Translations under genes and position numbers: made by a program
Shown: positions 6,980 to 8,485 of the stretch, piece by piece
How the letters are laid out: each line of letters begins with the position of its first letter
Position numbering within the stretch: position 1 is the stretch's first letter
The notes under the pieces: generated by a model
What the model saw: the letters and a program-made list of their open reading frames with translations, nothing else
Told to the model about the DNA's origin: nothing
The model's database searches: none
DNA from: a virus
Taxonomy: Duplodnaviria > Heunggongvirae > Uroviricota > Caudoviricetes
Strand: one strand, 5' to 3'
Length of the DNA stretch: 10,342 nt
Virus record (IMG/VR): IMGVR_UViG_2526164650_000011

Positions 6980-7089
6980 TATTCATTCTTCCAGATTCCT
7001 TCCGGCAGAGCCTTATACTGAAATATACCTGGCTCAGGATATTGTTGAAAATATTATATATTTGTCAAAAATAAAAGTTCTGTTAAGTA

Positions 7090-7443
7090 TTGATTGAGTA
7101 TTTGTTATACGGTCTAATGGTTTTTTCAGCATTAAGTATTTATCATTCATATGGTGTGGGTAGAGTGAATATTGATGAGGCGTCGGGGTGTTTCATCCTT
7201 AGGCAGCGTATTGATATAGTCAATGCAGCACGAGCAAAGGCCTTCAGCCGTTTGACAGTTTTGTTCTGTACTCCTGATCGTCTTTCGGGAAGAGACGTTA
7301 TTATTCTGAATAGTGATGCTATACAGAGGGTTTGCGATGAGTTCATGGTTGCTAATTCAGAATTATTTGCTCTTGTTCAGGAGTACAACAGAATAGCCAG
7401 GACCTGTGGTATGGATGAACTTCGGATTACTCATCTGGGGTAG
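7090..7443 (+). CDS. Hypothetical protein (up to 117 aa from TTG 7090; 108 aa from ATG 7117) in AT-rich cargo at the toxin slot of the late operon
   Basis: Open frame in an AT-rich segment. No convincing Shine-Dalgarno for either start and no family recognised. Confidence 0.35.
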   Translation: MIEYLLYGLMVFSALSIYHSYGVGRVNIDEASGCFILRQRIDIVNAARAKAFSRLTVLFCTPDRLSGRDVIILNSDAIQRVCDEFMVANSELFALVQEYNRIARTCGMDELRITHLG

Positions 7444-7834
7444 ATACATATCTGGATTATCACCTGTTACGGTAAAAAGTGATTGCTTACTGTTTTTGTT
7501 AATGGCATTGCAGCAGCCGGATAATGTCAGTGCCGGCTGACGGTGTGCTGGTGGCGGGTGTGGTGGTTGTTGCTTTCCCGTTGCTGAAAAAGAAAACGCC
7601 AGACTGTTAGCCGGGTATCAGTTAGCGGGAGAAATTTTTAAATACTTCACAATTCAGGCGGTTGACTGTTGTCTGGTTTGCGGGGAGTTTGTTAAAAGAA
7701 ACTGGCATGGTGAATCCCCCTGTGCGGAGGGGCAATCAGCGAGTAGGTATATGGGATAATCGCGGATTCAGGTGCTGGTACTGAATTCACCGGGAGGCAC
7801 CCGGCACCATGGAATGGCACATAGCGCCACTCTC

Positions 7835-7866
7835 CAGCCCCTCTCCGGAGGGGCTGTTTATATTGA
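7835..7866 (+). terminator. Strong intrinsic terminator: perfect 9-bp stem CAGCCCCTC-tccg-GAGGGGCTG followed by TTTATATTGATTTT
   Basis: Read directly. It terminates plus-strand transcription through the GC-rich segment at 7500-7835. Confidence 0.7.
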
Positions 7867-7890
7867 TTTTGTCAGATGTGAGTAAACTCC

Positions 7891-8226
7891 TTATGGACTT
7901 TGTTGTTTTAGTCCATAAGGGCATATTTGCAGAGTGCAACGGTTATTAAAGCATTCATTCAATACGTTATCTGTATTTGTAGGGCATTCCTGGCTGTTTT
8001 TGATTAAATTCCAGAATGTTTTATTGAATGGTACTACGTTGTAAATGGTTACAGGTAGCACTTTGTTATTGAGCATGATGCCTGTGTGAGTCAGTGTAAA
8101 TATACTTTCAGGAGGTAAGAAAGCATCCGATTGATACCAGATTATTAATTTTATTTTACTCCATATGACTGAAAAAGATATTCCGCATGATGGCTGGATA
8201 ACTGTATCAATCACAATCCACTTCAT
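7891..8226 (-). CDS. Hypothetical protein (111 aa, five Cys), antisense to the phage late operon
   Basis: ATG at 8226 is preceded on the minus strand by AAGGA with 6-nt spacing. The 3' end of the ORF forms an 11-bp hairpin (7889-7920). A TATACT -10-like hexamer lies upstream (plus-strand 8267-8272). No family recognised. Confidence 0.45.
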
Positions 8227-8485
8227 TTAGTTTCCTTGTTTATGCCTTGCTGGTGATGTTCTGAAAAGTATAAATGATATTTTTGAATTAAACCATAGAA
8301 CAGAATTATTTTTCTGATGTTGTTTATTGTTTATTTAAATGCAGGGTGGTTTATATCTCGTCTTGTAGTTTATCCATGCATATCTGCTTGATAATCAGGT
8401 TTTTATTTAAGGTATGGTTTTGTGTTTTTTCTGTATTACATGTCAGGTATTTTAAAGAATTATTTTTCAGATGTTGGAAAGAACC

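Follow-up and report, generated by a model that had tools for sequence, protein, structure and literature searches.

Two anti-adaptors, IraM and IraL, target the same protein, RssB (PMC4045071). IraL was described as an RssB anti-adaptor of CFT073 (Hryckowian et al. 2014, PMC4045071), and it raises both the level and the stability of sigma-S in unstressed logarithmic growth (PMC4045071). Its identity to IraM has been published as 58.9%, and IraL binds only RssB's N-terminal domain, whereas IraM binds both domains (PMC4045071). The iraL gene is enriched in Shigella and uropathogenic isolates, is at least 95% identical wherever it is present, and has a sigma-70 promoter that was mapped in log-phase cells of CFT073 by 5' RACE (rapid amplification of cDNA ends); its upstream region was reported to be conserved together with the gene (PMC4045071). 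iraL mRNA is higher at 37 than at 23 °C, and IraL levels are up in a fur mutant (PMC7157518, PMC12890032). A second described element is STnc100, a family of small RNAs (sRNAs) known from prophages and akin to PasD; in phages that carry the Shiga toxin (Stx) genes stx2AB, these sit 75 nt upstream of STnc100 (PMC12370729). Here we analyze a 10,342-nt stretch of DNA from the IMG/VR virus record IMGVR_UViG_2526164650_000011 (the window), and in particular its positions 6980-8485, the slot between the tRNA genes that follow Q and the holin gene, which contains both iraL and STnc100 in the place where Stx phages carry stxAB.

We conclude that this slot is very probably a mosaic of small 'moron' modules assembled by recombination, the chief cargo being the known protein IraL. 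In our reconstruction, it comprises, in order, a gene for a 92-amino-acid (aa) protein, an inactivated TciB-like DUF3927 gene, STnc100 with its terminator, iraL on the opposite strand and a nanS-p remnant (Table 1).

IraL is encoded in the slot where Stx phages carry stxAB

A first-pass annotation of the window, made from the sequence alone, had described two convergent, unrecognised open reading frames (ORFs) in the slot, at 7090-7443 on the plus strand and at 7891-8226 on the minus strand. The coordinates of both were confirmed, but neither description held in full: the plus-strand ORF likely starts at the GTG at 7165 and not at the TTG at 7090, and the minus-strand ORF is, by its sequence, IraL, which was already characterised and published in 2014. 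By the published distinction from IraM, an IraL shares 95% or more identity with CFT073 iraL and some 59% with IraM of K-12 (PMC4045071); the protein of the window is identical to CFT073 IraL over its whole length and shares 66 of 111 residues (59%) with K-12 IraM. It also matches the NCBIfam model NF007393, 'anti-adapter protein IraM', with 162 bits (cutoff 121) over residues 1-110, and its N-terminal 78 residues align with the solved IraM chain PDB 8TWD (E 9e-32). RefSeq labels iraL orthologues 'anti-adapter protein IraM'.

The promoter region could be compared as well. The published 5' RACE sequence, ACATCACCAGCAAGGCATAAACAAGGAAACCA, corresponds to the minus strand of the window from 8259 to 8228 in 31 of 32 bases, and the -10-like hexamer TATACT that precedes the iraL start site is conserved. 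As the 5' RACE sequence is present upstream of iraL in the window, the gene would therefore be transcribed from a promoter of its own, against the direction of the late operon. For iraL, this is at odds with the earlier proposal that genes in the slot are typically induced with late transcription, given its orientation and the sigma-70 promoter mapped by 5' RACE in CFT073.

Between the two ORFs, the first-pass annotation had pointed to a GC-rich, hairpin-dense segment ending in a strong terminator. Both were recovered, the segment at 7511-7870 with 52.5% G+C and the terminator as listed in Table 1. As judged from its full-length match to the Rfam model (positions 1-206 of 206; gathering score 47), the segment is the known prophage sRNA STnc100. 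On the opposite strand, the Prokaryotic Genome Annotation Pipeline (PGAP) of RefSeq places a partial 'hypothetical protein' pseudo-coding sequence (pseudo-CDS) at 7695-7820 (minus), antisense to STnc100, which is probably spurious.

Table 1. Features of the slot and of the surrounding prophage genes, with positions in the window.
Feature	Position	Strand	Evidence
Late antiterminator Q, 273 aa	5771-6592	+	Pfam PF03589 Antiterm, E 7e-55
PR'-like promoter	6598-6625	+	Consensus scan: TTGATT-16-TAAAAT with TG extension
tR'-like intrinsic terminator	6673-6692	+	Scan: 7-bp stem, 5 G-C pairs, T run
tRNA, anticodon CAT (tRNA-Ile2 type)	6737-6812	+	ARAGORN; Rfam tRNA 72.5 bits
Degraded tRNA-Arg(TCG) relic	6818-6896, approximate	+	Intact counterpart in CFT073
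tRNA-Arg(TCT)	6903-6979	+	ARAGORN; Rfam tRNA 68 bits
92-aa gene, phrog_2873 (probable)	7165-7443	+	First-pass ORF 7090-7443, start moved to GTG 7165
DUF3927/TciB-like gene, 43 codons, pseudogene	7479-7610	+	042 orthologue: PF13064 95.6 bits, phrog_1470 'TciB-like'
STnc100 sRNA with intrinsic terminator	7676-7865	+	Rfam RF02076, 124.2 bits, E 1.5e-27
STnc100 3' terminator hairpin	7835-7856	+	Scan: 9-bp stem, 7 G-C pairs, T run
iraL, RssB anti-adaptor, 111 aa	7891-8226	-	111/111 identical to CFT073 IraL WP_000871291.1
iraL 5' untranslated region, predicted transcription start 8259, -10-like TATACT 8267-8272	8227-8272	-	Published 5' RACE sequence
AT-rich iraL upstream region, 28% G+C	8273-8470	-	~98-99% identical to CFT073, 042 and phage 640R1
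nanS-p (DUF1737 + SASA) esterase deletion remnant	8486-8829	+	tblastn with 617-aa JLK-2012 YjhS
Class II (P21-type) holin, codons 1-54 of 71	8982-9143	+	PF04971, 81 bits, profile positions 1-54 of 64
IS3-family transposase gene	9186-10004	-	272-aa transposase

STnc100 is flanked by exchangeable cargo

Positions 6695-9143 of the window are 98.2% identical to the phi-potB prophage of CFT073, and the two have in common the gene order Q, tRNAs, DUF3927, iraL, DUF1737, holin. Of 5426 complete E. coli genomes, 863 contain 80% or more of the 1.5-kb cargo and 1446 contain iraL with its upstream promoter region. Some phages match only part of the slot: mEp460 has only 6980-7811 in common with the window and continues with other genes, while the vB_EcoS phages share only 7647-8485. 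These two parts overlap at STnc100, and the mosaic joint falls within it.

In phi296 the slot is empty, and the tRNA-Ile gene, two tRNA-Arg genes, about 60 nt, STnc100, nanS and the holin gene follow one another. In STEC1585, a methyltransferase gene separates Q from the tRNAs, and these are followed by a TolA-like gene, an AraC-like gene, a homologue of the 92-aa gene, STnc100 and nanS-p. Across other prophages the cargo consists of AraC-like, TerB, DUF3927, TolA-like or methyltransferase genes. Thus, the idea of a swappable cassette in the Q-to-holin slot, raised in the first-pass annotation, agrees with what is seen in phi296 (empty), in Stx2 phages (stx2AB) and in the remaining prophages (different cargo), and we regard the cargo as horizontally acquired. 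Our model suggests that STnc100 is the shared anchor, with variable cargo on either side. Two cargo positions would then exist, one upstream of STnc100, holding stxAB or the 92-aa gene with tciB, and one downstream, holding iraL in reverse orientation.

Decay of the prophage and its bearing on the slot

Several observations weigh against a mosaic in which IraL is the chief cargo. A 1-bp deletion lies between 8288 and 8289, 29-30 nt upstream of the predicted start site of iraL, at a position where CFT073 and 042 have a C and phage 640R1 has a T. It turns the best -35-like hexamer, TTTACA, into TTTAAT, and owing to this change in the promoter the expression of iraL may differ from that in CFT073. 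The STnc100 copy has a minimum free energy of -71.2 kcal/mol (z = -1.21 against shuffled sequences), with no excess of stability, and STnc100 is without an established target or function in the literature (PMC12370729). That Q-antiterminated transcription would run antisense through iraL is something we purely infer. Finally, the prophage is decaying, as seen from insertion sequence (IS) insertions, a nonsense mutation in tciB, a tRNA relic and a deletion in nanS-p.

The damage to tciB is a G>T change at 7500, which converts codon 8 of the DUF3927/TciB gene from GAA to TAA; the gene is intact in 042, CFT073 and mEp460. Literature searches for tciA/tciB returned only Trypanosoma papers, and a search for DUF3927 gave nothing useful. 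In the nanS-p remnant, 8486-8707 corresponds to YjhS residues 1-74 and 8692-8829 to residues 572-617, so that the first 74 and the last 46 codons are kept around an internal deletion of about 1.5 kb. The sole domain detected is DUF1737 (62 bits); the SASA catalytic domain has no match, and the C-terminal piece aligns with positions 582-632 of 634 of phrog_143. RefSeq calls these pieces a DUF1737 pseudogene and a 53-aa hypothetical protein.

These lesions raise the alternative that, in this genome, the entire interval is in decay and no longer functions, being carried in a dead prophage riddled with IS elements. The nonsense mutation at 7500, the reduction of nanS-p to two short pieces, the degraded tRNA-Arg(TCG), the interruption of the holin gene and relE by IS elements and the 1-bp deletion in the -35/spacer region of iraL would all be expected from such a remnant. 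However, the iraL frame is intact and encodes a protein identical to the functional one, the 92-aa ORF is intact, and STnc100 matches its full model; furthermore, enrichment of iraL in Shigella has been reported, as has its retention of at least 95% identity where present (PMC4045071). We consider a functionless interval improbable, although the lesions give it some weight. The first-pass annotation had itself envisaged decayed fragments of ordinary phage genes or a non-coding spacer as outcomes that would overturn its view, and both ORFs turned out to be intact genes.

A probable small gene of the phrog_2873 family

The plus-strand ORF 7090-7443 matches phrog_2873, a small phage protein family annotated with unknown function, through residues 10-117 and profile positions 1-108 of 108 (E 2.2e-69, 231 bits). 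Among 1.8 billion representative proteins, an exhaustive search with HMMER recovered no more than 20 relatives, and prophages of Shiga toxin-producing E. coli (STEC) contain a homologue with 56% identity. We compared the window ORF with this homologue codon by codon: from codon 26 to the end, the differences are distributed 24/23/43 by codon position, with a ratio of nonsynonymous to synonymous substitution rates (dN/dS) of ~0.27, whereas in codons 1-25 the substitutions are equal at all three positions. The full-length homologues, down to 32% identity, are 91-95 aa long and begin at an 'NIDE' motif, and in one of them a GGAG Shine-Dalgarno motif stands before the corresponding GTG. Because of the codon-position pattern, the starts of the homologues and this Shine-Dalgarno motif, we set the start at the GTG at 7165, and 7165-7443 is probably a real gene that begins there.

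PGAP leaves this gene unannotated in CFT073, in 042 and in the top 25 RefSeq matches, which could also be explained if ORF 7090-7443 were a chance ORF in an AT-rich spacer. The TTG start without a good Shine-Dalgarno motif and the lack of codon-position bias among the substitutions in the first 25 codons would fit a chance ORF. In contrast, the substitution pattern and the dN/dS from codon 26 onwards, the constant length of homologues as distant as 32% identity, the existence of a PHROG family for the protein, the conserved synteny with TerB and DUF3927 and a confident structure model (see below) all argue for a gene, and we regard a chance ORF as quite unlikely. The PGAP omission and the pseudo-CDS on STnc100 look like annotation errors.

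What the protein does is less easily read. It has no match in Pfam, NCBIfam, PADLOC or PDB sequences, and comparison of the phrog_2873 family alignment with Pfam, together with a profile search of PDB sequences, returned only noise. The AlphaFold2 model (pLDDT 88) consists of a helix, a beta-hairpin and a helix. With this model as query, Foldseek returned no match at E <= 1e-3 from PDB or BFVD, and prefoldin beta (E 0.06) ranked first; the fold matches were either non-significant or of the generic coiled-coil kind, and because nothing significant was obtained we read no function from the fold. Signal peptide-like and enzymatic features are absent.

As to genomic context, some relatives lie in the order Q ... 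AraC-like regulator, 92-aa gene, TerB-like gene (TciA), DUF3927 gene (TciB), holin gene, and others in the same arrangement without the AraC-like gene. The most distant relatives adjoin a fimbrial cluster (PapB/usher) and an operon of type IV pilus-like genes. In STEC and other prophages, the AraC-like regulator (HTH_18, ~241 aa, phrog_1450) lies directly upstream of homologues of the 92-aa gene; the window lacks such a pair. As the 92-aa gene has few relatives, is passed over by PGAP, is under purifying selection and recurs between Q and the holin gene, often directly after an AraC-like regulator and before TerB and DUF3927, and as its distant members stand beside fimbrial and type IV pilus operons, it could conceivably code for a novel small factor that regulates or binds proteins, such as an anti-activator or a partner of the AraC-like regulators, which lambdoid prophages would bring to their host in the Stx slot; we offer this as a tentative suggestion to which we assign a low probability. 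The first-pass proposal of an undescribed function does not apply to IraL, given its identity to the CFT073 protein, or to STnc100, which is in Rfam, and stands only for the 92-aa phrog_2873 gene, the sole remaining gene of unknown function in the slot.

That the slot would hold an undescribed toxin or host-interaction factor, switched on with late transcription like stxAB, is very unlikely: the stx-equivalent position of the slot, the placement of the 92-aa gene in what would be the late transcription unit, the purifying selection on it (dN/dS 0.27) and its lack of Pfam, NCBIfam, PADLOC or PDB matches speak for such a factor, but the largest and best conserved gene is the characterised iraL, which lies antisense to the late operon with a putative promoter of its own, no slot ORF of at least 40 aa has an Stx-like or other toxin domain, and the 92-aa protein is a plain helical hairpin with generic coiled-coil matches and without signal peptide-like or enzymatic features. 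No PADLOC model of anti-phage defence was matched by IraL or the 92-aa protein, by the AraC-like protein, or by the TerB-like and DUF3927 neighbours.

Genetic setting of the slot

The window represents a Qin/phi-potB-type lambdoid prophage, now defective and interrupted by IS elements. Using Pfam, ARAGORN and a scan for promoters and terminators, we saw the architecture that the first-pass annotation had described, namely Q, PR'/tR', tRNA-Ile2, tRNA-Arg(UCU), about 1.5 kb of low-GC cargo and the holin gene. It had also reported that no StxA- or StxB-like ORF is present, and indeed none of the ORFs of at least 40 aa in 6931-8549 matches any Pfam family, StxA and StxB included, the longest slot ORF being 117 aa. 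Its statement that the cargo is low in G+C was likewise correct (39.2% in 6980-8485 versus 51% in the phage genes on either side), and two of its hand counts, 19/60 and 11/60, were exact; the ydfU line used for comparison contains 30/60 and not 31/60. Within the slot, the iraL part has 32% G+C and the region upstream of iraL 28%. Tandem repeats in the slot are limited to two trivial short arrays.

Upstream, the window contains relB, relE (split by an IS), hokD, rem, a DUF968 (ydfU-like) gene and rusA, followed by Q; rem is named solely through the annotation of related phages. The Q orthologues in the 042 and CFT073 loci are annotated 'antitermination protein'. Because the site at 6598-6692 directly follows Q, we assign to it a putative PR'/tR' function. 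The orthologues of the tRNA with anticodon CAT are tRNA-Ile in RefSeq. The tRNA-Arg(TCG) relic has lost or altered its anticodon-arm segment, both in the window and in E. coli 042, and neither ARAGORN nor Rfam calls a tRNA at 6818-6896. Downstream, an IS insertion truncates the holin gene after 9143, and identity to CFT073 stops at the same position. Among species-representative genomes, the exact holin/IS junction was matched only in E. coli ECMA0423 (CP178302.1).

Further IS elements were observed. The relE gene is split by an IS3-family element (orfA 1865-2203, orfB 2230-3069), with the RelE N-terminus from 1756 and a ParE/RelE-type C-terminal part within 2999-3295; relB (1517-1756), which encodes the antitoxin, is intact. 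Two copies of one IS3-family element, at 372-1190 (plus) and 9186-10342 (minus), bracket the prophage segment in inverted orientation, and their 272-aa transposases differ at two residues; it is the right copy that truncates the holin gene. A fragment of an IS1 transposase occupies 1-294. Two Rfam matches remained below threshold, one isrK-like at 3531-3612, directly after hokD (20.7 bits; gathering score 50), and one Trp_leader-like (27.6 bits; gathering score 41) at 6593-6699, where the short transcript from PR' to tR' would lie; both are probably due to chance or driven by a terminator.

Discussion

Our model suggests that the prophage acts on its host through IraL. As shown in CFT073 and expected for the window, transcription of iraL would take place while the prophage is repressed and would not depend on Q, and IraL would bind RssB's N-terminal domain, as shown for the identical CFT073 protein. 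With RssB blocked, sigma-S would, as in CFT073, not be handed to ClpXP, so that RpoS would accumulate and RpoS-dependent genes would be on in exponential growth. The outcome would be lysogenic conversion of the general stress response of the host, and not a toxin. The 92-aa gene and STnc100, in contrast to iraL, would lie within the late transcription unit.

If this is correct, a gene for lysogenic conversion, acting on the RpoS general stress response, occupies the Stx slot here, and STnc100 is a fixed landmark for cargo exchange. The analysis is also of use for annotation, as RefSeq labels iraL 'IraM', misses the 92-aa gene and puts a pseudo-CDS on the sRNA. IraL (2014) and STnc100 (Rfam) were already known, and no new biological question arises beyond the 92-aa gene.

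Of the described systems, the iraL locus of CFT073 is the closest. It has the identical protein, a start-site sequence that agrees in 31 of 32 bases, and the same flanks (Q, tRNAs, DUF3927, STnc100, iraL, DUF1737, holin). Unlike the window, CFT073 has an IS200 element and an intact tRNA-Arg(TCG); the window, for its part, has the DUF3927 nonsense mutation, the 1-bp deletion in the iraL promoter and the IS in the holin gene.

IraM of K-12 belongs to the same homologous family (66 of 111 residues identical). However, it is a PhoP-dependent anti-adaptor of Mg2+ starvation, whereas IraL acts in unstressed log phase. At the DNA level, iraL resembles K-12 iraM (71%) only within the coding sequence, the promoters and flanks being unrelated, as would suit two genes that are regulated differently. 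A shared ancestry of the iraM and iraL flanks was considered for K-12 and rejected, as the similarity ends at the coding sequence and no STnc100 lies beside iraM.

The STnc100 copy resembles other STnc100/PasD sRNAs in its full-length match, its 3' terminator hairpin and its usual place near nanS-p and the holin gene, but differs in that iraL stands between it and the nanS-p remnant. Compared with the stxAB cassette, the slot has the same location, after Q, PR'/tR' and tRNA-Ile/Arg and upstream of STnc100, nanS-p and the holin gene. In contrast to that cassette, the window has no toxin gene; directly upstream of STnc100 it has the 92-aa gene and tciB, and its iraL lies beyond STnc100, on the opposite strand and with what would be its own promoter. 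With the AraC-like/phrog_2873/TerB(TciA)/DUF3927(TciB) module, finally, the window shares a 92-aa gene followed by a DUF3927 gene between Q and the holin gene, whereas the AraC-like and TerB genes are missing and DUF3927 is inactivated.

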